Assembly (NCBI GenBank): GCA_049414405.1
Contig: JBMSAQ010000008.1
Location: 25,505-57,504, forward strand
Origin: Candidatus Nanopusillus sp.
GTDB lineage: Archaea; Nanobdellota; Nanobdellia; Nanobdellales; Nanobdellaceae
Reading direction: 5' to 3'
DNA: 32,000 nt
Under the pieces are notes generated by a model. That model was not told the DNA's origin. It did not search any database and saw only the letters and a list, made by a program, of their open reading frames with translations. Positions 14,541 through 24,925 of the stretch are shown one piece after another. The stretch's first letter is position 1. Each line of letters begins with the position of its first letter. The position numbers were made by a program, and so were the translations under genes.

Positions 14541-15368
14541 GTGGAATTAAATGATATTTTTGTTAGAGTAACGGATATAACAGATTATATTTTTTGCCCC
14601 AGAAAAGTTTATTTGAAAAGAGTTTTGGGATATTCAGAAGAAGATACTGAACAGAAAATATTTGGATCAATTATTCATTCTTTATTTGATAAAATAAATG
14701 AAAAAGAGAAAGAGATAATATTTAATATAAAGGAGTTTGTTGAATATGAAAAAATATTAAATTTATATAATAATTTTTTAATAAAATTATTGGAAGAATC
14801 TATAAAAGAATTTGAAGAACAGATAAAAAATTTAAATTTAGATAAAAATGATATAAAGATAAAGGCATATAGTTATGTAATAAAAGACATAGAAGACAGA
14901 GCGAAAAATGTGTTTAATTTTATGAAAGATAATGATTTATATGGAATAGAATTATGGGAATTCTTGGAACCAAAAATAAAGACAGAATTTGATGTTACAT
15001 CTTTGAAATATAATATAGTTGGTAGGATCGATAAGTTAGAAATATATAAAAAACATATAATACCTTATGAAATAAAATCCGGATTTTTTAGAAAGGAACA
15101 TATTACACAATTATACTCATACTACTTATTATTGAAGGATGAATTTCCAAATTATGATATAAGAAAAGGTATATTATTATATGCAAAGAATAATCATAAA
15201 ATAGAAATAGAGTTTAAAAATAATAGTGAAATAAAGAAAATATTAGATATAAAGGATAAGATAATTGATATGATTGATAATAAAGAAGATCCTGGAAAAA
15301 AATTTTCTGAAAAATGTAAAAAATGTGCATTTTACAATATTTGTTGGAAAAATGGAAATAAAAATTGA
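14541..15368 (+). CDS. Cas4/RecB-family (DUF83/PD-(D/E)xK) nuclease with a 4-Cys Fe-S cluster signature; not next to any CRISPR array or other cas gene in this window
   Basis: N-terminal Cys in ITDYIFCPRKVYL. Nuclease core GRIDKLEIY...IPYEIKSG (D...ExK). QxxxY motif (ITQLYSYYLLL). C-terminal CKKCAFYNIC (CxxCx5C). GTG start, with no in-frame ATG nearby. Confidence 0.8.
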   Translation: MELNDIFVRVTDITDYIFCPRKVYLKRVLGYSEEDTEQKIFGSIIHSLFDKINEKEKEIIFNIKEFVEYEKILNLYNNFLIKLLEESIKEFEEQIKNLNLDKNDIKIKAYSYVIKDIEDRAKNVFNFMKDNDLYGIELWEFLEPKIKTEFDVTSLKYNIVGRIDKLEIYKKHIIPYEIKSGFFRKEHITQLYSYYLLLKDEFPNYDIRKGILLYAKNNHKIEIEFKNNSEIKKILDIKDKIIDMIDNKEDPGKKFSEKCKKCAFYNICWKNGNKN

Positions 15369-16116
15369 TACTAAAAAAAGTATATATGAAAACATAAACG
15401 AAATATATGAAAAAATAAAAGAATTAAAAAATAAAAAACAGAAAATAGAAAATTTGATAAAAGAATTAGAAGAAAAATTAAATAACATTGAGGAAAAAAT
15501 AGTTATTGAAAAAAAGAAAGAAGAAATTAAGAGAAACAAAAAATGGTATGAAAAATTTAGATGGATGTTTACAACGAATAATTTTCTGTTAATTGCTGGA
15601 AAAGATTCTATTACAAATGAAATCATTATAAATAAATATTTAGAAAAAAATGATTTGATATTTCATGCAGATATTGTGGGATCCCCCTTTGGTATATTAA
15701 AAAATGGAAGAAATGCAAGTGAAATAGATATATATGAAGCTGCAAAATTTGTTGGATCATATTCTAGAGCATGGAAAAATAAATTATCTTCCATAGATGT
15801 ATATTATGTATACCCAGATCAGATATCAAAGAAGGTACCTTCTGGAATGTATTTAAAAAAAGGTTCTTTCATGATATACGGGGAGAAGAATTATGTAAAA
15901 GTAAATTTAGAGATTGCATTGGCATTTGAAAATTATAATGTCATACCAGGAGTACCTGAAAGTATAAAAGATAAATATAAAAGATATGTTATATTAATTC
16001 CTGGAAATAAGAAACCAATCGATATCTCAAAACAATTAGAAAATATTTTTAAAGTTGATTACAACATTATATTAGGATACCTTCCAGGTGATAGTGATAT
16101 ACTATACATCAGGTAA
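15352..16116 (+). CDS. NFACT-R (DUF814) domain protein with an N-terminal coiled coil; resembles the C-terminal half of an RqcH/NEMF/FbpA-like factor
   Basis: KWYEKFRWMFTTNNFLLIAGKDSITNEIIINKYLEKNDLIFHADIVGSPFGILKNG...AAKFVGSYSRAWK...VYYVYPDQISKK matches the DUF814 pattern (W.e.frwf.s..gf.i..Gr...qNe.l......D.wfHa...GS.vvlk...aA.lAa.yS.aw). The track ORF starts at 15274. I chose the ATG at 15352 (MEIKIDTKK) because the first 26 codons overlap the Cys-cluster end of the Cas4-like gene, but the start is uncertain. Confidence 0.7.
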   Translation: MEIKIDTKKSIYENINEIYEKIKELKNKKQKIENLIKELEEKLNNIEEKIVIEKKKEEIKRNKKWYEKFRWMFTTNNFLLIAGKDSITNEIIINKYLEKNDLIFHADIVGSPFGILKNGRNASEIDIYEAAKFVGSYSRAWKNKLSSIDVYYVYPDQISKKVPSGMYLKKGSFMIYGEKNYVKVNLEIALAFENYNVIPGVPESIKDKYKRYVILIPGNKKPIDISKQLENIFKVDYNIILGYLPGDSDILYIR

Positions 16117-16151: not shown

Positions 16152-18068
16152 ATGGACAACAAAGTGGTAGTAACACTAAAAAGATTATTTAGTTTTTTAG
16201 CGGGAATAGTAGTACTAGCATCAGGAATAAATGCGCAGCAATTACTAATAGAACCACAAACGCCAACATTATTAGCAAATACATTGAATAATTTAACATT
16301 TATAGTAAAATTGTATGAAGTAGACCAAGAACCACAACAAGCATATCTGTATTTCAATATATATGCACCAAATAGACAATTAATATATCAATACTTTGAG
16401 CAAATATCAGTTTGCACAGGAATGAATATATATCAAGTATCAGTGAATCCTTTAGAATTGCAAAATTTAATAAAACAGTATAGTTCATGTACACAATCCA
16501 CATGTCCACCACGACAATATAATTTCACAGTAGAAGCAAATGTAACATTATTGTATCCATCGGGTTTACAGTATGTAACCGCAAATCAAACATATAATTT
16601 AACATTTGTACCATATAATTTAACATTATCATTAATAAGGTTACCAACAGTAATCTCGCAACAATATGCACAACAATATGGAATAAATGTACAGTCTGTA
16701 GTATACTTACAAAATGTTGGAACAAATGTACAATCTGCAACATTAACATTAACATTATATAGTTCAGATGGAAATATCATATATCAAACACAAAAAAGCG
16801 TAAATCTAAAACCTGGGGAGAATTTATTAACTATTAAAATACCAGGTTATTATCTAAAGAATGTGCAAGGAAAAATGTATGTATTAGAACAATTGACAGT
16901 TGTATTATCCAATGGACAAGTATTAATACAACAAGCAGAACAATCCTTTTATATATCAAACAATCAAAATGGACAAAATATAGAAATAATTTCAATATCG
17001 CCAAACTTTAATTTATTGAATAATCTAGCAAATTCAATATATAATGTGGGGGTATTAGTGAAGAATCCAGGTCATCAAACAGTAGATGTAACAGTTCAAA
17101 TGTTATTATATGATCAATATGGAAATTTAGTATACAATTTACGAGATTCACAGACAATATCTCCAAATTCCCAAGGAGAAGTAATATTACTATTAAATAC
17201 AATAGGATTACAACCAGGATATTATAAAGTTATACTATATGTATATCAAAATGGAGTGGGAATATATCAGTATAGTTATACAATAACAATAAATGCACAA
17301 AAAATACAGCCAGTAAATGTATTAAATGTATATACAAACACATTTAATGTAAAACCAGGACGATTTATAGAATTATATGTAAATCTGAAATCTAACTTGC
17401 CAATGGATATACAAGTACAACCAGTAGTAATGTCACAACAGTTAAATATATTCCAACAGTTATCAACAATAACATTATCACCAAATCAAGTAACACAGTT
17501 ACCAGTAGTAGTAAGAATTCCAGAAAATTTAACAGCAGGTTATTATCCAATTCAGTTTGTATTTAATTATGATGGAGTATCGCAAACATATACATACAAT
17601 TTATATGTAAACGGAACAAAGATAGAACCAAAACCAATAATTGCATCATTGGTTGGATATATACCATTAAAATATAAAGAAAATTCAACAATATACTTAA
17701 TAATAAGTTCAAATACAACAAAGGTGTATAATCTATTAATACAAGCATATGCTGTTGGAGGAAAAGTATACCCAGAACAACAAGAAATACAAATAGGAGG
17801 TACATATACCGAAAGAATACCATTAAATGTAACTGCAGAAAGTAATAATGTAACAATATACGTAAATATAATGGACCAACAAACAGGAAAAATATTATAT
17901 TCATTGGTTGAAGAGTATTCTGTACCAAAAGAAGCTTCAGTATCATTACCATTTTCAGGATTAATATTCTGGATATTAGTAATATTGGCAGTAATAATAA
18001 TAGCTGCAATATTAATAGAATCAAGAAGAGAGAATAAGAAAAAAAGAAGGGAAAAGGCTGAAGAATAA
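16152..18068 (+). CDS. Large secreted, probably N-glycosylated surface protein with repeated beta-sandwich (CARDB-like) modules and a C-terminal TM anchor
   Basis: N-terminal hydrophobic signal (LFSFLAGIVVLASGINAQQ). Q/N/Y/T/V-rich beta-type composition. At least 12 N-x-S/T sequons by my count. Recurrent module, e.g. ATLTLTLYSSDGNIIYQTQKSVNLKPGENLLTIKIP versus VDVTVQMLLYDQYGNLVYNLRDSQTISPNSQGEVILLLN. C-terminal anchor GLIFWILVILAVIIIAAILI followed by RRENKKKRREK. Confidence 0.65.
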   Translation: MDNKVVVTLKRLFSFLAGIVVLASGINAQQLLIEPQTPTLLANTLNNLTFIVKLYEVDQEPQQAYLYFNIYAPNRQLIYQYFEQISVCTGMNIYQVSVNPLELQNLIKQYSSCTQSTCPPRQYNFTVEANVTLLYPSGLQYVTANQTYNLTFVPYNLTLSLIRLPTVISQQYAQQYGINVQSVVYLQNVGTNVQSATLTLTLYSSDGNIIYQTQKSVNLKPGENLLTIKIPGYYLKNVQGKMYVLEQLTVVLSNGQVLIQQAEQSFYISNNQNGQNIEIISISPNFNLLNNLANSIYNVGVLVKNPGHQTVDVTVQMLLYDQYGNLVYNLRDSQTISPNSQGEVILLLNTIGLQPGYYKVILYVYQNGVGIYQYSYTITINAQKIQPVNVLNVYTNTFNVKPGRFIELYVNLKSNLPMDIQVQPVVMSQQLNIFQQLSTITLSPNQVTQLPVVVRIPENLTAGYYPIQFVFNYDGVSQTYTYNLYVNGTKIEPKPIIASLVGYIPLKYKENSTIYLIISSNTTKVYNLLIQAYAVGGKVYPEQQEIQIGGTYTERIPLNVTAESNNVTIYVNIMDQQTGKILYSLVEEYSVPKEASVSLPFSGLIFWILVILAVIIIAAILIESRRENKKKRREKAEE

Positions 18069-18075
18069 TTTTTTT
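18069..18075 (+). terminator. T7 run immediately after the stop codon of the 16152..18068 gene (archaeal oligo-T terminator type)
   Basis: taa followed by ttttttt at 18069..18075. Confidence 0.4.
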
Positions 18076-18076
18076 A

Positions 18077-18124
18077 TCTGTTAGCTTTAATTCATCATTT
18101 TTCAGCCTGGGACGGTTTCTTCAT
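18077..18124 (-). ncRNA. Candidate C/D box sRNA (48 nt core)
   Basis: The minus strand reads AUGAAGA (C-like, 18124..18118), then a 12-nt spacer AACCGUCCCAGG, CUGA (D', 18105..18102), AAA, AUGAUGA (C', 18098..18092), an 11-nt spacer AUUAAAGCUAA, and CAGA (D-like, 18080..18077). Box order, 12/11-nt guide lengths and the 3-nt D'-C' loop fit the archaeal C/D architecture. The terminal boxes each deviate from consensus by one nucleotide. Confidence 0.4.
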
Positions 18125-18130
18125 TTTGTA

Positions 18131-18181
18131 CCCCTACTAACTCAACCTTTTTCATCTATCTAAAGGTTACCCTGGTAGGGG
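18131..18181. other. GC-rich extended hairpin abutting the stop codon of the 18182..18709 gene
   Basis: cccctacta (18131..18139) pairs with tggtagggg (18173..18181): 9 bp including one G-U. Next comes a 4x4 internal loop, then aaccttt (18144..18150) pairs with aaaggtt (18162..18168), with an 11-nt loop. Local G+C is far above the window background. Confidence 0.5.
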
Positions 18182-18709
18182 CTATATATATTTTAGAAAA
18201 TTAATTATTATATTTTTATTTAAAACTTCTGGATGAAATAATGAAAAATATATGTTTTTATATTTATACAATACTGGAATATTTTCTACCATTCCAATTA
18301 TATAAAATTTTTCATCAATCTTCGGAATCTTTGTTATCAAAAAATATGCTTCAAAATCTTTATCAATTATCTTATCTTTATTAATTATTTTTACATAATA
18401 TTTTCCAATTAATTCTTTATCTTCAAAACCATAATTTAATAATTTTGTTAATATTTGACTTCCAGAACATATTGCAAGAGTTTTTATATTGTTTTCAATT
18501 ATAAATTCGAAATTTTTTATATAATTTAAATAATCAAAATCCATTATTGCAGTACCTGTTACTATTATTTTTTCAAAATATTCATTTACTTTATCTTTAT
18601 ACGAAAAAATTTTATAATTAATGTTTAATTTTTTTAAGATATTTACTATTGGATATAGGAACTCATATTTTGATAATCCTTCTTTATTTGTATGAATTAT
18701 TCCAATCAT
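18182..18709 (-). CDS. Class-I glutamine amidotransferase-like protein (GuaA-subunit-A-like size and layout)
   Basis: Nucleophile-elbow-like LAICSGSQIL (consensus G-x-C-x-G-x-Q) and a C-terminal FSLFHPEV (His-Glu of the triad, consensus FHPE). At 175 aa it is similar in size to stand-alone GATase subunits. Overlaps the upstream PP-loop gene by 4 nt. Confidence 0.55.
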   Translation of the reverse strand: MIGIIHTNKEGLSKYEFLYPIVNILKKLNINYKIFSYKDKVNEYFEKIIVTGTAIMDFDYLNYIKNFEFIIENNIKTLAICSGSQILTKLLNYGFEDKELIGKYYVKIINKDKIIDKDFEAYFLITKIPKIDEKFYIIGMVENIPVLYKYKNIYFSLFHPEVLNKNIIINFLKYI

Positions 18710-19371
18710 TTTAAATAAGCATCTTTTATAATATATTCTGCATAATTTTTTTCTATTTTTATTTCATAATCTTTTATTATTATCTTTTTCTTAAATAATG
18801 GTTGATATAAAACAAAGGTTTCATATTCTCCACCTTCTCCCGCAATATTTATTTTATATTTTTCTTTATATTCAATTAATTTTTTTATTATATTTTCATC
18901 AACAACTTTTCCTAAAATATTTATATCTAATGGATAGGTATACCATCCAACAATTATAAAACGAAAATTATTTTCCAATAATTCATATAAATATTCTTCT
19001 TCATCCTTTAGCCATAAAGGGTTAAAACACCATAGATTTAATCTCCTGCATATCCTTTGAAATCTAGATCCTTGATATGTAGACCTAATTGCCCCAGTAA
19101 CAATTCCATCAATATTATATTTTTCTTTTAAATATTTTAGCACTTCAAACAATGTTTCCTCTTCATTATTATTTATATTAAATCTTTCTATCGGTATATT
19201 CAGAGCTTTTGATTGTAGTTCAGTTAAATTATTATTAATATAATGATATAAATAACTTTCATTATTTTTTGGAATTATATTTAATAGTACAGATATCTCA
19301 TGATATTTTGATGCAATATATAATGAATAGTTTGAATCCTTTCCTCCAGAATATAATACTCCAAGCCTCAT
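18706..19371 (-). CDS. PP-loop ATP pyrophosphatase of the MJ0570/Dph6 (diphthine-ammonia ligase) family
   Basis: N-terminal MRLGVLYSGGKDSNYSLY (SGGKDS PP-loop), GAIRSTYQ..R, and C-terminal AGEGGEYETFVLYQPLF are the hallmarks of this family as I know it. Confidence 0.75.
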   Translation of the reverse strand: MRLGVLYSGGKDSNYSLYIASKYHEISVLLNIIPKNNESYLYHYINNNLTELQSKALNIPIERFNINNNEEETLFEVLKYLKEKYNIDGIVTGAIRSTYQGSRFQRICRRLNLWCFNPLWLKDEEEYLYELLENNFRFIIVGWYTYPLDINILGKVVDENIIKKLIEYKEKYKINIAGEGGEYETFVLYQPLFKKKIIIKDYEIKIEKNYAEYIIKDAYLK

Positions 19372-19384
19372 GTGAATAATTTGA

Positions 19385-19975
19385 TTATTTAGATATGGGA
19401 ACTACTGGAAGGACTGGAGGTCTAGAAACTATTAGTTGATATATTAGACCGTATAGGTATTCTCTGGGTAGTAATTGATAAATTATGTTACAGTTATTTT
19501 CCGAATAACAATAAACATTATTATCATATAAAAATATATCATTGTTTGCAATTATTATTGGATGGGTTATGTTTATATGATATGTCATATTAAAACATGA
19601 ATATTCAGGACATTTTACCATTGGACATATTCCTTCAGGTGTACATGATACATTACAAGGATACCAAATGAAGGGACATTTCTCTACTGTTACGCTATAA
19701 TGAACCGTCTGATTACAAAATATAAATGAAGTAGTATTAACATATTCTACTAATGGTACTATGTAATTTATGCCTGGCCCTATATTTTTTATTATGAAAT
19801 ATCCGTCTGTAACATTATACAAATAACATCCATCCCCATATAGACTTAATGAATATAATTGCAAATTTATTTTTTCTAATTTATAGTTAACAGTAGATTT
19901 ATCACTTATTGATACTATTATGATAAAGATAATCAATGAAAGTATTCCAACAATAAACTTTGTGTTTAATTTCAT
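19385..19975 (-). CDS. Secreted or membrane-anchored cysteine-rich protein (196 aa)
   Basis: N-terminal anchor/signal KFIVGILSLIIFIIIVSI. Cys-dense core (CPFIWYPCNVSCTPEGICPMVKCPEYSC). Several N-x-S/T sequons. Its own TATA-like box lies upstream. It is 13 nt upstream of the PP-loop gene on the same strand. Confidence 0.5.
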   Translation of the reverse strand: MKLNTKFIVGILSLIIFIIIVSISDKSTVNYKLEKINLQLYSLSLYGDGCYLYNVTDGYFIIKNIGPGINYIVPLVEYVNTTSFIFCNQTVHYSVTVEKCPFIWYPCNVSCTPEGICPMVKCPEYSCFNMTYHINITHPIIIANNDIFLYDNNVYCYSENNCNIIYQLLPREYLYGLIYQLIVSRPPVLPVVPISK

Positions 19976-20144: not shown

Positions 20145-22349
20145 ATGGCAAGTTTAACTGAAAGAATATTGAAAGTTATGAATAATCCGAATAATATAAG
20201 GAATATAGGTATAATTGCGCATATACACCATGGAAAGACAACATTGACAGATTCTTTATTGGCAGGCGCGGGAATGTTGGCTGAGGAACTTGCAGGCGAG
20301 GCAATGTTTACGTGGTGGCATGAAACTGAAAGAGAAAGAGAAATGACAGTATACGGAGCAGCAGTTTCAATGGTTCATAATTATGAAAATCAAGATTATT
20401 TGATAAATTTAATAGATACTCCCGGACACGTAGAATTTTCCGGACAGGTTACCAGAGCTACTAGAGCTATTGATGGTGCAATTGTTGTAGTGGATTTTGT
20501 TGATGGAATAATGCCTCAAACAGAAACTGTATTGAGGACTGCATTGAAAGAATATGTAAAACCAGTATTATTTATAAATAAAACCGATAGAGCAATTACA
20601 GAGCTAAAATTATCTCCACAACAAATTATGGAAAGAATTGGAAAAATAGTTATTGAAATAAATAGATTAATCGATAAATACTCTCCTCCAGAATTTAAGG
20701 GAAAATGGAACGTAAATGTAAATGACGGATCTGTTGCATTTGGATCTGCAAAATTTCATTGGGCATTGTCAGTACCTTTTATGAAAAAATATAATGTTTC
20801 ATTTAAAGATATAATTGAAATATATAATCAATTTTTAGAAGATAAAGAAAAGTTAAAGGAAGAGATGAGAAAAAAGGCACCCGTTGCAAAAGTTGTATTA
20901 GATATGGTTATAAAGCATTTACCTTCTCCAGTTGAAGCACAAAAATACAGAATTCCTAATATATGGAGGGGAAATATAAATTTAGATGTTGGAAAAGCAA
21001 TGTTAAATTTAGATTCGAATGGACCAATAGTAATAAATGTAACAAACGTAATAATTGATAAGGTATCAAAACAAGAGATTGCAACTGCAAGGATATTTTC
21101 AGGTACTTTATCGAAAGGTGATGATGTATTTTTAATTCAAGCTGGAAGACAAATAAAAATACAACAGGTTGCTGTATGGAAGGGAATACAAAGAATAAAT
21201 GTAGATTCTGCAAAGGCTGGTAATATAATTGCTTTAGTTGGAATAAAAGGATTATATCCAGGAGAAACAATTATTGGAAAGGTTCAAGATCCAAAAAGTG
21301 TTGAAACATTTGAAGAAATGAAACATTGGTTAGATCCTGTAGTTGTAAAATCTTTTGAACCAAAGAATCCAAATGATTTACCAAAATTAATTGAAACATT
21401 AGATTTATTAACAAGAGAAGATCCAACAATGAAAGTTGAACAGAAGAGAGATACTGGGGAAATTTTAGTATCTGGTTTAGGAGATTTACATTTACAGATA
21501 ATAGAATATAGAGTACAAAATGATTTTGGAATACCTGTAAAGGTTGGAAATCCGATAGTAATTTATAGAGAATCTGTTAATGGGGTTACGCAAACATATG
21601 AAGGAAAATCTCCAAATAAACATAATAAAATATATATACAAATTGAACCTTTACCATATGAAATATATGAAAAAATGAGGGGGTATATTAGGGAAGGAAA
21701 AATCCCCGAAGGAAGAATTAAAAGGGAAGATTTATGGAAAGTATTCAATGAGATTGGATTTGATAAAGAAGAAGCAAGGAGAATTATAATGGTACAAAAT
21801 GGGAATGTATTGATTGATATGACAAGAGGTATTGTTCATTTACCAGAAGTAATAGAATATATAGTAGAAGGGTTTAAGGAAGTTATGAATCAGGGTCCAT
21901 TAGCCTGGGAACCTTGTATAATGATGAAAGTTAAATTAATTGATGCAGTATTACATGAAGACGCAATCCATAGAGGTCCTGCCCAAATAATTCCAGCAAC
22001 AAAAGATGCAATTAAAAGTGCTATTCTTGAACAACCAACATTATATGAACCATTGCAAGTTATAAGGATTGATACTCCTCCAGAAACCATCGGGGATGTA
22101 ACATCTATATTACAATCAAGAAGAGGACAGATATTAGAAATGAATATTGAAGAAGAAAGAGCAACAATTAAGGCAAAGGTGCCTGTAGCAAATATATTTG
22201 GATTTACAGATGAATTAAGATCTGCAACATCTGGAAGGGGTGTTTGGTTCTTAGAAGATCAGGTATATGAGAAAGTCCCAAAAGATTTACAACAGCAAAT
22301 AGTAGATTCTATAAGAAAAAGAAAAGGAATACCAGAAGGGGTTCACTAG
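20145..22349 (+). CDS. fusA: Archaeal translation elongation factor 2 (aEF-2)
   Basis: GTPase motifs AHIHHGKTT (G1), DTPGHVEF (G3), NKTDR (G4). Full five-domain length (734 aa). The diphthamide-site motif HEDAIHRGPAQIIPA has its target His at codon 609 (nt 21969..21971). Confidence 0.95.
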   Translation: MASLTERILKVMNNPNNIRNIGIIAHIHHGKTTLTDSLLAGAGMLAEELAGEAMFTWWHETEREREMTVYGAAVSMVHNYENQDYLINLIDTPGHVEFSGQVTRATRAIDGAIVVVDFVDGIMPQTETVLRTALKEYVKPVLFINKTDRAITELKLSPQQIMERIGKIVIEINRLIDKYSPPEFKGKWNVNVNDGSVAFGSAKFHWALSVPFMKKYNVSFKDIIEIYNQFLEDKEKLKEEMRKKAPVAKVVLDMVIKHLPSPVEAQKYRIPNIWRGNINLDVGKAMLNLDSNGPIVINVTNVIIDKVSKQEIATARIFSGTLSKGDDVFLIQAGRQIKIQQVAVWKGIQRINVDSAKAGNIIALVGIKGLYPGETIIGKVQDPKSVETFEEMKHWLDPVVVKSFEPKNPNDLPKLIETLDLLTREDPTMKVEQKRDTGEILVSGLGDLHLQIIEYRVQNDFGIPVKVGNPIVIYRESVNGVTQTYEGKSPNKHNKIYIQIEPLPYEIYEKMRGYIREGKIPEGRIKREDLWKVFNEIGFDKEEARRIIMVQNGNVLIDMTRGIVHLPEVIEYIVEGFKEVMNQGPLAWEPCIMMKVKLIDAVLHEDAIHRGPAQIIPATKDAIKSAILEQPTLYEPLQVIRIDTPPETIGDVTSILQSRRGQILEMNIEEERATIKAKVPVANIFGFTDELRSATSGRGVWFLEDQVYEKVPKDLQQQIVDSIRKRKGIPEGVH

Positions 22350-22380: not shown

Positions 22381-22551
22381 ATGGGAAATAAAATTGGTGA
22401 ATGTAAATATTGCAATAGACCAGTATATGATAATGAAAAATATAAGATAATAAATTTTAATGGGGAAAAGATGATTTTTCATATATCTTGTTTTAGAAAA
22501 TTAAAAAAAGAAGCGATTGATTTAGTGAAGAAAGGATTTGTTAATTTCTAA
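22381..22551 (+). CDS. Small (56 aa) putative zinc-binding protein, below the ORF-track length cutoff
   Basis: Reads atgggaaataaaattggtgaatgtaaatattgc...; translation MGNKIGECKYCNRPVYDNEKYKIINFNGEKMIFHISCFRKLKKEAIDLVKKGFVNF has CxxC...HxxC spacing. TATA-like tttttatataataaa lies ~24 nt upstream. Its stop overlaps the stop of the convergent 22548 gene. Confidence 0.45.
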   Translation: MGNKIGECKYCNRPVYDNEKYKIINFNGEKMIFHISCFRKLKKEAIDLVKKGFVNF

Positions 22552-23381
22552 ATCTTTGGTTGATATATGTGTATCATATATAGATATGTAATATATGAAA
22601 ATGGAATAATTACAATAAAGAAAAACAATAATGAGTTTAAAATATTTACATTTCCAGATGCAATTGAAAACAGGAATGCTAAAATTAATAATATCATTGG
22701 AAATGTTATAAAGAAAAATGCATACAAAGTTATCCACAAATTGACTTTTTCATTATATTCCTTTAGTTGTATTTCGTATTCTTCTAAATTTTGTTTTGCA
22801 TATATTCTAGCAAAATCCTTTAGAGAACCTCCAGATCTAATTACTGATATCAACCCATATAAGAATTCTTTGAATTTTTCTGAAGGTGTTTTTCGAGCCA
22901 ATTCCAATAATGCAGATAAAATATCATATCCAAAATTGTCAATTAATATTAATAAATATGAAATTTCTTTATTTATTGCTCCAAATCTTTTTTCTCTATT
23001 TAATAATTTGAATATATTTATTATATTCATTTGAGAACCTGAATATGAATAAAAGTATAATGCAAAAAATGGTAAATTATCTTCTATATCTTTTATATAA
23101 TCTGCTTTTGCTAATGTTGGATAAATATAAAAATAAATAAATGTTAGAAAACCAACAATAATTCCAAATAAAATACTTACAGAAAATAGTACTATATCAT
23201 AGAAATTTAGGTAAAAGATAAACATCAAAGATAAAGATATAAAGGATAAAACAAATGTTAGGAAGGAATATTTTAATGTTGCTTTTACGTAATCTTCAAT
23301 AGAAGTTTTAAATTGTGTATAAAATATATCATATTTTTTATCCTTAAAATATGGATATAATTTTTTTACTAAAAAGTTCAT
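22548..23381 (-). CDS. Type IV filament platform membrane protein (T2SSF/FlaJ/TadC family), single-domain 277-aa form
   Basis: One cytoplasmic T2SSF-like helical domain (LPFFALYFYSYSGSQMNIINIFKLL...GYDILSALLELARKTPSEKFKEFLYGLISVIRSGGSLKDFARIY) flanked by TM helices. Overlaps the upstream ATPase gene by 4 nt. Confidence 0.7.
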   Translation of the reverse strand: MNFLVKKLYPYFKDKKYDIFYTQFKTSIEDYVKATLKYSFLTFVLSFISLSLMFIFYLNFYDIVLFSVSILFGIIVGFLTFIYFYIYPTLAKADYIKDIEDNLPFFALYFYSYSGSQMNIINIFKLLNREKRFGAINKEISYLLILIDNFGYDILSALLELARKTPSEKFKEFLYGLISVIRSGGSLKDFARIYAKQNLEEYEIQLKEYNEKVNLWITLYAFFFITFPMILLILAFLFSIASGNVNILNSLLFFFIVIIPFSYITYLYMIHIYQPKI

Positions 23382-24925
23382 ATTTTCTTCAATAAGGAGT
23401 CTTTATCTGTATAATATAGCTTTATATATTCAGCAATTTTCTTATTTTCTCTCATATTCTTTTTTACTAAATAATCTATTACTTGTTTTTTCTCTTCTAT
23501 CGAATCTTTAAAACTTATATTTGATCCAACTCTATATTTTAATGTCTCTTCAGTATACTTCCCCAAATCTCTTTTTTCAAATGTATCATCTTCAAAATTC
23601 CATTTTATAACCGTTTCATTTTCAACCTTTCTATTCAAATATTTTCCTACTTCAACAATCTCTCTTATTCTCCTAGCGGAGGGGGAAATGTTTCTTGCCC
23701 TCATTGTAAATATTACTACATCTAATAATGCAACATGGTCTGGAGTTAAATTAATTGGTGGTGTTGTTAATCTTCTTATTAATGTTCTCCAGCTATCAGT
23801 ATGTACGGTTGATAGTGCAGAATGACCAGAAGCCATTCCTTGGAACATTACATATGTCTCTTCCCCCCTTACTTCTCCAACAATTACATAATCTGGATTT
23901 TGTCTAAAAGATTCTGATAATAGTTTATACATATCAATTTCTCCATAGTATTTATCTCCAACAAAGAAACCTTTTCTTGTTGTCGCGGGAATCCAGTTTT
24001 CATGATACAATTGTAATTCTCTTGTATCTTCAATGGATATCACCTTTGCTTCTGGTGGTATGAATTGTACAATTGAATTTAATAATGTTGTTTTTCCAGA
24101 AGATGTTGAACCAGCAATTAATATGTTCGCTCTAAATTCTACTAAGGTCCATAAATATGCGGCAGTTTCAGAATCTAACACATTTAATTTTATTAAATCT
24201 ACTAATGATAGCATTTGCTTTTTGAATTTTCTTATTGTAAATGTTGGACCATGCGTAGTAATTTCTTGCGAATATGTTGCATTTACCCTCGATCCATCAG
24301 GTAATGTTGCATCTAAAATTGGCTCCGCATATGATATATGTTTTCCAGCCTTTTGCGCTAACTTTACTATAAATCTATCCAATTCATCTCTCGATAAAAT
24401 TATGTTTGTCTTTAATATTCCAAATTTATTATGGTGTACGTATATTGGTATATCATATCCATCGCATGAAATATCTTCAATAAATATGTCATAAAATAAT
24501 GGGTGAATTTTTTCATATCCCAACATATCTCTCCATAAATAATAATAATATTTTATGAATAAATCTTTATCTATTTTTATCTTATACTTATTTACAAATT
24601 CTTCTAATTTTTTTATTAATACATATTCTTTATTCTTATTTAGAAATTCTTCAGGATTTTTATACATTTCATCTAAAATATATTGTTTTACCTTTTCTAT
24701 TAATATCATTTCTTCATCTGATATTTCTGGCTCTAATAATTCATATATAAGTTCTTCGGATACATTATCATAATAAATATGTGCATATGCTAGTTTTCCA
24801 ATTAACGGATAAATTATATCAATTTGCGATTTATCGATATCAAATTTTATGTCTGGTATAAAAGATTCTTTTTTTATTTCGTTATTAAAATATTTTAGTA
24901 TATCTTCGGCAATAATTTTTTTCAT
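23378..24925 (-). CDS. Type IV filament/secretion ATPase of the FlaI/ArlI-PilB-VirB11 family
   Basis: Walker A AGSTSSGKTTLLN, Asp box ISIEDTRELQL, Walker B/Glu PDYVIVGEVRGEE, His box GHSALSTVHT. The long N-terminal domain is typical of archaeal FlaI-like ATPases. Confidence 0.85.
   Translation of the reverse strand: MKKIIAEDILKYFNNEIKKESFIPDIKFDIDKSQIDIIYPLIGKLAYAHIYYDNVSEELIYELLEPEISDEEMILIEKVKQYILDEMYKNPEEFLNKNKEYVLIKKLEEFVNKYKIKIDKDLFIKYYYYLWRDMLGYEKIHPLFYDIFIEDISCDGYDIPIYVHHNKFGILKTNIILSRDELDRFIVKLAQKAGKHISYAEPILDATLPDGSRVNATYSQEITTHGPTFTIRKFKKQMLSLVDLIKLNVLDSETAAYLWTLVEFRANILIAGSTSSGKTTLLNSIVQFIPPEAKVISIEDTRELQLYHENWIPATTRKGFFVGDKYYGEIDMYKLLSESFRQNPDYVIVGEVRGEETYVMFQGMASGHSALSTVHTDSWRTLIRRLTTPPINLTPDHVALLDVVIFTMRARNISPSARRIREIVEVGKYLNRKVENETVIKWNFEDDTFEKRDLGKYTEETLKYRVGSNISFKDSIEEKKQVIDYLVKKNMRENKKIAEYIKLYYTDKDSLLKKI

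Follow-up and report, generated by a model that had tools for sequence, protein, structure and literature searches.

We analysed a window of 32,000 nucleotides (nt) from Candidatus Nanopusillus sp. (contig JBMSAQ010000008.1, positions 25,505 to 57,504 of the forward strand; coordinates below count from the first letter of the window), in which a gene for the diphthamide enzyme Dph6 is directly followed by a gene, here called gat, for a class-I glutamine amidotransferase (GATase). The window is very AT-rich (GC content about 24%) and belongs to a 695-kb assembly of 42 contigs that is estimated to be 92.6% complete. The names of close relatives (Candidatus Nanopusillus, Nanobsidianus stetteri and Nanobdella aerobiophila) mark its source as a nanoarchaeal ectosymbiont. 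On the minus strand, dph6 (18706..19371) encodes a protein of 221 amino acids (aa) that TIGR03679 and PF01902 assign to the diphthine-ammonia ligases, which are PP-loop ATP pyrophosphatases. Its translation holds the ATP-binding PP-loop SGGKDS at residues 8-13 (19333..19350, minus strand) and the EGGEYET motif at residues 179-185 (18817..18837, minus strand), the latter within GEGGEYETF at residues 178-186. The gat gene (18182..18709, minus strand) encodes the Dph6-associated class-I GATase of 175 aa. The codon of its nucleophile, Cys81, lies at 18467..18469 (minus strand) in the nucleophile elbow AICSGSQ, and the rest of the triad is found in the sequence FHPE, with the codons of His159-Pro160-Glu161 at 18227..18235 (minus strand; His159 18235..18233, Glu161 18229..18227). 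The TGA stop of dph6 and the ATG start of gat share four nucleotides, ATGA, at 18706..18709 of the minus strand (raw sequence AAAATGATTGG), an arrangement that points to translational coupling of the two genes. A sequence-only reading of the same stretch had described the PP-loop protein of 221 aa with both of its motifs, the 4-nt overlap of its stop with the start of a 175-aa GATase-like protein, and the elbow and His-Glu pair of that protein, and all of these features were recovered in our analysis.

Upstream of dph6, a Cys-rich open reading frame (ORF) of 196 aa with an N-terminal hydrophobic segment (19385..19975, minus strand) ends 13 nt before the dph6 start. The substrate protein, elongation factor 2 (EF-2), is encoded on the plus strand at 20145..22349 and carries the target histidine, His609, in the sequence IHRG (codon 21969..21971). 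The starts of EF-2 and dph6 are 774 nt apart on opposite strands, and most of this gap is occupied by the 196-aa ORF, which the sequence-only reading did not mention. As this ORF fills most of the gap and ends so close to dph6, ORF196, dph6 and gat probably form one transcription unit (ORF196-dph6-gat) that diverges from EF-2. The 196-aa ORF is conserved within the genus only, at 32-94% identity as compared with 71-96% for Dph6 in the same genomes, and no Pfam family matched it. It contains many Cys residues and evolves fast.

Diphthamide is a universal modification of archaeal and eukaryotic EF-2 and the target of diphtheria toxin, and the last step of its synthesis is catalogued as the reaction of an ammonia-dependent ligase (EC 6.3.1.14). 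The product of dph6 passes the equivalog model for the archaeal enzyme (TIGR03679, Dph6_archaeal; 248.8 bits at a cut-off of 197.3), scores 201.8 bits against PF01902 (cut-off 23.2) and is the sole PF01902 match in the genome. Its closest solved relatives are PF0828 (3rjz/3rk0/3rk1) and PH1257 (2d13), with E values of about 1e-76. The Pfam family PF28410 bears the name Diphthami_syn_2_C. Across 32 Dph6 proteins that are accompanied by the GATase, S8, G9, G10, K11, D12 and S13 of the PP-loop as well as E179, G180, G181, E182 and E184 of the second motif are invariant; in PF0828, the counterparts of EGGEYET (E183, E186 and E188) are conserved and lie at or near the modelled EF-2 interface (PMC3541065). 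The genome further encodes Dph2 (in two pieces), Dph5 (164.6 bits) and the EF-2 with His609 in IHRG. Because dph6 is the only PF01902 gene, and because Dph2, Dph5 and the target histidine have been kept, the gene content indicates a complete diphthamide pathway with Dph6 as the sole candidate for its final reaction, in which diphthine would be amidated at the expense of ATP, as predicted from its family membership.

The division of Dph2 is an observation in its own right. Its pieces lie outside the window, at G000:C6:31301-31894 (profile positions 63-270) and G000:C8:11013-11192 (positions 1-59), and two further members of the genus (species G004 and G005) have Dph2 divided in this way too. 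DPH2 of Nst1, a member of this genus, is also split in Table 1 of Podar et al. 2013. The same table marks DPH2 as absent in Nanoarchaeum equitans; contrary to it, the genome that we take to be N. equitans (G020, 490,885 bp) holds an unsplit PF01866 match of 167 bits.

The product of gat is predicted to have the flavodoxin-like fold of class-I GATases. Its AlphaFold2 model, built on an alignment of ten orthologues, reached a predicted local distance difference test (pLDDT) score of 95, and the top Foldseek matches of this model are the A subunits of archaeal guanosine monophosphate (GMP) synthases (2a9v, 2d7j and 7d97; probability 1.00, template modelling score of about 0.8), followed by TrpG, PabA and PdxT. 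The protein is the sole PF00117 match in the genome. Orthologues of gat occur throughout the genus at 67-94% identity, which, together with the TIGR03679 score of Dph6, argues that both ORFs are real genes and not chance frames. A search with the single sequence returned only eight close relatives and a profile was needed to reach the wider family, for which an exhaustive profile search gave 234 clusters (50% identity) at E values of at most 1e-30. A set of 32 orthologues drawn from several phyla shows no variation at Cys81, His159 or Glu161. When the best 150 of the 234 cluster representatives were aligned with the window protein, the triad was intact in 143 of the 151 GATases and the Cys present in 146; those without an intact triad are five proteins with Gly in place of Cys, two of which also lack the His, and three fragments. 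The conservation of these residues suggests that the gat product is an active glutaminase. The family also has an N-terminal signature of its own, formed by L12, E16, F17 and P20.

We found that the pairing of the two genes extends far beyond the genus. In a profile search of 61 relatives, 21 genomes gave matches of at least 107 bits, including seven further families of the class, and other GATases scored 69 bits or less. In the loci examined across the genus and six further families, dph6 lies directly upstream of gat, mostly with the 4-nt overlap; two genes intervene in one genome. Within a species-level genome collection, 72 of 80 named archaeal loci have dph6 upstream of gat on the same strand, and for several of the other eight the upstream sequence is too short to judge. 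The 80 loci come from Nanoarchaeota, Aenigmatarchaeota, Nitrososphaeria, Bathyarchaeota, Thermoproteaceae, Archaeoglobaceae, Methanothrix, Methanomicrobium and Thermoplasmata, taxa that were taken from the record names, some of whose metagenome labels may be unreliable. At the level of ORFs, 70 dph6/gat pairs of other genomes comprise 41 with an overlap of four nucleotides, about 10 with other overlaps, about 14 with the genes 0.5-2.5 kb apart and three in which the genes are fused (two from Methanothrix and one from Methanomicrobium). Fusions of PF01902 to PF00117, with Dph6 at the N-terminus and the GATase at the C-terminus, make up six of the best 150 representatives and have an intact triad in all six cases; a search with a Methanothrix fusion found dozens more fusion clusters, chiefly from Methanothrix. 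Public names of the fused proteins include 'diphthine--ammonia ligase', 'GMP synthase subunit A', 'TIGR00289 family protein' and 'ABC transporter ... ATP-binding protein'. The spread of neighbouring and fused genes indicates that the link between Dph6 and the GATase is old and widespread.

The sequence-only reading had asked for the adjacency to be sought in relatives, and the pairs and natural fusions described above supply it. It had also pointed to the closeness of EF-2 on the opposite strand. The distance, the orientation and the codon of the target histidine are as it described them, but we rejected proximity as functional evidence, since the divergent EF-2 neighbourhood is kept within the genus, whereas outside it a single locus (L096) among the 80 named ones shows it. 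In nine more distant loci, with flanks of up to about 7.5 kb on each side, EF-2 was not found beside the pair.

A different architecture is present in ten genomes of the same class: their Dph6 is fused N-terminally to an AsnB-like (Asn_synthase) PP-loop module, which some of the proteins combine with a class-II GATase domain and others do not. These proteins (loci L036-L046) measure about 680-740 aa with the class-II domain and about 475-506 aa without it; the shorter forms have no obvious nitrogen donor. None of the ten AsnB-fused genomes, among the 61 sampled, encodes a member of the class-I GATase family, and the two arrangements thus have a complementary distribution.

The complex of Dph6 with the gat product was modelled, as the sequence-only reading had suggested, and an interface was predicted. 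The ipSAE score, which is the model's own confidence and was obtained with alignments that we supplied ourselves, was 0.92 in each of three runs and 0.00 for the best of three controls. Among solved complexes, 58 of 80 reach the mark used for this score, as do 2 of 110 mismatched pairs. At least 98% of the contacts are common to the runs, and the partner has a pLDDT of 94. Recall of a solved complex by the model is unlikely, because the PDB entries that are related to Dph6 by sequence contain Dph6 alone; GMP synthase remains a distant analogue in this respect. On the Dph6 side, the modelled interface comprises residues 19-24 and 98-123, including the stretch CFNPLW. On the GATase side, it is formed by residues 10-23 (with L12, E16, F17 and P20 of the N-terminal signature), 54-56 (next to G52-T53), 99-103, 122-126 and 161-163, and both the catalytic Glu161 and V162 lie inside it. 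In the model the GATase would accordingly meet Dph6 through its catalytic face. The interface touches Y99 of Dph6 and none of the other residues proposed to contact EF-2; the equivalent of Y99 in PF0828, Y103, has been placed at the EF-2 site (PMC3541065).

The conservation of Dph6 can be set beside this model. Dph6 sequences of 28 partnered, 23 partnerless and 10 AsnB-fused proteins were compared, and the six positions that best discriminate partnered from partnerless Dph6 (105, 116, 115, 117, 101 and 114) all lie in the modelled interface. Q105, W114, C115, F116 and N117 are conserved in partnered and variable in partnerless Dph6. The excess of conservation in the interface was matched by 1 of 20,000 random sets of positions and by none of 110 shifted patterns, counts that are not true probabilities because the sequences are related. 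The partnered set is phylogenetically the broader one, which works against finding such an excess in its interface. The complex model thus supports binding of Dph6 and the GATase, and together with the conservation that is specific to the interface it suggests that the two proteins form a complex.

We consider it likely that dph6 and gat encode a heteromeric, two-subunit diphthamide synthetase that hydrolyses glutamine. The last nitrogen of diphthamide would probably come from glutamine, since the pairing of Dph6 with the GATase is kept, or turned into a fusion, in many archaea. According to this proposal, Dph6, by means of its SGGKDS PP-loop and its EGGEYET motif, would spend ATP on adenylating the diphthine carboxylate on His609 of EF-2. 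The 175-aa glutaminase, made in step with Dph6 by way of the ATGA overlap, would dock its catalytic face onto the surface of Dph6 around residues 98-123. Cys81, His159 and Glu161 would then hydrolyse glutamine, and the ammonia would be handed to the adenylated intermediate, giving diphthamide, adenosine monophosphate, pyrophosphate and glutamate. The transfer of ammonia from the glutaminase to Dph6 is assumed here by analogy with other amidotransferases. The idea of a coupled glutaminase that makes Dph6 a two-subunit, glutamine-dependent enzyme had been put forward in the sequence-only reading and gains support from the triad, the adjacency, the fusions and the complex model; none of the outcomes that this reading named as refuting was observed.

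Several observations weigh against this proposal, among them the two cautions given above with the ipSAE score and the interface counts. The gat product itself scores 21.8 bits against PF00117, just below the cut-off of 22.8, with 47.8-85.3 bits for the GATase domains of fused family members. Yeast Dph6 reportedly uses ammonium in vitro and is, to our knowledge, the only Dph6 that has been characterised; the glutaminase function of every member of the GATase family is a prediction. The GATase was not found in 36 of 57 relatives that have Dph6, and there are other genera in the family that possess only Dph6. Within the genus, gat is cleanly deleted in the species G004 (locus L158, G004:C4:8500-13500), which keeps the order of surface-protein gene, dph6 and ORF196. 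There the surface-protein gene is convergent with dph6, and about 180 nt separate the 3' ends of the two; the Dph6 of this species retains Q105, C115, F116 and N117 and has Ser in place of W114. The gene is interrupted by stop codons in G024 (L033, G024:C36) and shortened to 147 aa in G039 (L034, G039:C1). In G020, the genome taken to be N. equitans, which also carries Dph2 and a Dph5-like gene, Dph6 is part of a 376-aa fusion (L042:1617-2747, minus strand) whose C-terminal 150 residues align to the Dph6-linked GATase family (hhalign probability 96.7, E value 4e-10); the Cys of this domain is replaced by Gly and the His by Asn, so that it is a pseudo-glutaminase. The same change of Cys to Gly is found in five of the best 150 representatives, at least one of which is still coupled to Dph6: P0109, with Gly for Cys and Gln for His, overlaps a complete dph6 by 4 nt. 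Another, P0030, has a 4-nt overlap with an upstream ORF that is cut off by the end of the contig. In many relatives Dph6 therefore works without the partner, presumably on free ammonia. The partner is dispensable, and it keeps some role after the loss of catalysis, because dead copies stay fused or coupled to Dph6. It looks like an optional nitrogen-donor module.

These observations give the main support to an account in which the GATase-like protein binds Dph6 and has a mainly structural or regulatory task, such as stabilising Dph6 or docking EF-2, with Dph6 using free ammonia. Dead copies that remain fused or coupled (the N. equitans type and P0109), the further catalytically dead examples P0030 and the copy in G019, and the many relatives in which Dph6 alone suffices would all fit. 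What it leaves unaccounted for is the triad, invariant in the 32 orthologues across phyla and intact in 143 of 151 GATases including the six fusions, a pattern not easily explained unless catalysis is selected for; moreover, it is with its catalytic face that the GATase meets Dph6 in the model. We therefore regard a mainly structural task as unlikely, though deserving of serious thought. Much less probable still is that the pair amidates a substrate other than diphthine on EF-2. PF01902 is not isofunctional, and its DUF71-B12 subgroup, thought to act in cobamide salvage, provides a precedent (PMC3541065); the role of every partnered archaeal member is, moreover, predicted from sequence. Against such a substrate stand the passing of the Dph6 equivalog model, the position of dph6 as the only PF01902 gene and the retention of Dph2, Dph5 and the target histidine, and B12 genes were not found nearby.

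The gat product could also be read as the glutaminase subunit (A) of a GMP synthase with two subunits, lying beside dph6 by accident, given that GMP synthase subunit A comes first among its matches in both NCBIfam and the PDB and that the public labels of its relatives include 'GMP synthase-like glutamine amidotransferase'. Its scores are nonetheless far below the equivalog cut-offs (24.7 bits against NF001975, cut-off 198; 22.3 bits against TIGR00888, cut-off 172), and the 92.6%-complete genome has no match to GMP_synt_C (PF00958) and none above 15 bits to TIGR00884 (guaA C-terminal). GMP_synt_C is present in five of the 61 sampled relatives, none of which has the Dph6-linked GATase. Of five free-living archaea with the pair, each with 5-8 PF00117 genes, four have a separate GMP synthase in the form of a fused or split GuaA (recognised by GMP_synt_C), and in the fifth no GMP_synt_C was found. 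In a phylogenetic tree, 35 Dph6-linked GATases, among them the domains of six fusions and the degenerate one of the N. equitans type, share one branch with a support of 97 (Shimodaira-Hasegawa-like approximate likelihood ratio test, SH-aLRT). On the other side lie 26 paralogues, which are all the other PF00117 domains of the five free-living genomes and include the GuaA glutaminases that are fused to or adjacent to GuaA-B. The group of 35 was gathered by similarity to the gat product of the window, and the tree therefore makes the narrower point that the Dph6-linked copies of the five genomes join this group and not their own paralogues. The conserved gene order and the fusions to Dph6 likewise speak against an accidental neighbour. 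With scores so far below the cut-offs, no GuaA-B found and a separate branch in the tree, we rejected the assignment to GMP synthase, which we consider scarcely credible. Two further points raised by the sequence-only reading are settled by the same comparison: the PP-loop protein is not the B subunit of GMP synthase, as it passes the Dph6 model, and a separate guaA was found neither in the genome nor in the pair-carrying relatives of the class.

If dph6 and gat do encode a glutamine-hydrolysing synthetase, the glutaminase subunit would define a second form of the enzyme, and the pair (221 and 175 aa, or a fused chain of about 440 aa) would offer a compact system in which to study the passage of ammonia to a protein-bound substrate. 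We lean towards the broader view that such an unrecognised synthetase is used by many archaea, including DPANN symbionts as well as Methanothrix and Bathyarchaeota, that its glutaminase belongs to a distinct class-I family mislabelled as GMP synthase A, and that Nanoarchaeota show every stage of its decay. Judged by their sequences, the nanoarchaeotal copies range from intact and coupled, as in the window, to dead but fused in the N. equitans type, broken, and deleted. They would form a natural series on the role of the glutaminase subunit after catalysis has been lost. The label 'GMP synthase subunit A' would then be a widespread mis-annotation, used in genomes without GMP synthase, that distorts metabolic reconstructions of DPANN symbionts.

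The surroundings of the locus hold further elements. A non-coding element of about 110 nt (18069-18181, minus strand) lies directly 3' of gat and is conserved across the genus. It contains a hairpin (CCCCTAC...GTAGGGG) with two compensatory pairs, followed by ACA as in an archaeal H/ACA guide, and after the hairpin a sequence resembling a C/D-box small RNA (sRNA): AUGAAGA, 12 nt, CUGA, AUGAUGA, about 12 nt and CAGA/CUGA. In Rfam the element had sub-threshold matches only, nearly all to families of C/D-box small nucleolar RNA (snoRNA) or sRNA, many of them archaeal and most on the minus strand; a tRNA scan and Rfam at its gathering thresholds gave no matches in the window. Convergent with gat, a gene on the plus strand (16152-18068) encodes a 638-aa protein with weak immunoglobulin-like and carbohydrate-binding-module-like matches and 57-90% identity within the genus. 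Its translation has a hydrophobic stretch at each end and then a basic C-terminal tail, and it is likely a surface or S-layer-type protein. Upstream of it (14541-16116, plus strand) are genes for a Cas4/PD-(D/E)XK-type nuclease of 275 aa and for an NFACT-R_1 RNA-binding protein. As listed, the TTG start of the latter overlaps the nuclease gene by 95 nt, and the true start is therefore probably further downstream. Beside EF-2 (22548-24925, minus strand), genes for a T2SSE-type ATPase (515 aa) and a T2SSF-type membrane protein (277 aa) overlap by 4 nt, a pair that by its families would serve archaellum or type IV pilus assembly.

In the literature that we searched, a library with few subscription journals, a class-I GATase partner of Dph6 is nowhere described. 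For Nst1, from the same genus, Podar et al. 2013 list 'a putative glutamine amidotransferase' under amino-acid metabolism. De Crecy-Lagard et al. 2012 identified DUF71 as Dph6 and suggested that the ammonia source varies, with AsnB/class-II GATase domains fused to it in a few archaea, and with eukaryotic forms that carry YjgF/RidA domains; clustering of dph6 was reported only with dph5, in Methanosarcina (PMC3541065). The sequence-only reading, which took characterised diphthine-ammonia ligases to use free ammonium and to have no glutaminase partner, is to be corrected in one point: glutamine-derived ammonia for Dph6 had already been proposed in 2012, for the class-II/AsnB fusions (PMC3541065).

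The stand-alone archaeal proteins PF0828, PH1257 and MJ0570 and yeast Dph6 (YLR143W) have the catalytic domain, the PP-loop and the EGGE motif in common with the protein described here. They differ from it in that a glutaminase partner has not been described for them; yeast Dph6 carries C-terminal YjgF/RidA-like domains (PMC3541065). The AsnB-Dph6 fusions, in which GAT-II and Asn_synthase domains are joined to DUF71/Dph6 in Methanohalophilus mahii, Methanosalsum zhilinae and 'Ca. Nanosalinarum' (de Crecy-Lagard et al. 2012, PMC3541065), resemble the pair in having a glutamine amidotransferase as the proposed ammonia source for Dph6. Their GATase, however, is of class II (N-terminal nucleophile type), comes with a second PP-loop domain and stands N-terminally, whereas the pair in the window has an unrelated class-I GATase that is encoded after Dph6 or, elsewhere, fused to its C-terminus. 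The nearest matches of the gat product in fold and sequence are the two-subunit archaeal GMP synthases (Methanocaldococcus jannaschii 2lxn/7d40, Pyrococcus horikoshii 1wl8/2d7j and Thermoplasma acidophilum 2a9v), in which a separate, small class-I glutaminase, equipped with a Cys-His-Glu triad, likewise works for a PP-loop enzyme whose substrate is adenylated before it is amidated. There the partner is GuaA-B and the substrate xanthosine monophosphate, in contrast to Dph6 (PF01902) and a modified protein side chain here. The PDB matches to the GuaA A subunit, moreover, begin only at about profile position 38, whereas the N-terminal signature of the gat product lies in its modelled interface with Dph6. 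By analogy, the mechanism that we propose would be the familiar scheme of PP-loop amidotransferases such as GMP synthase, applied to a protein substrate.

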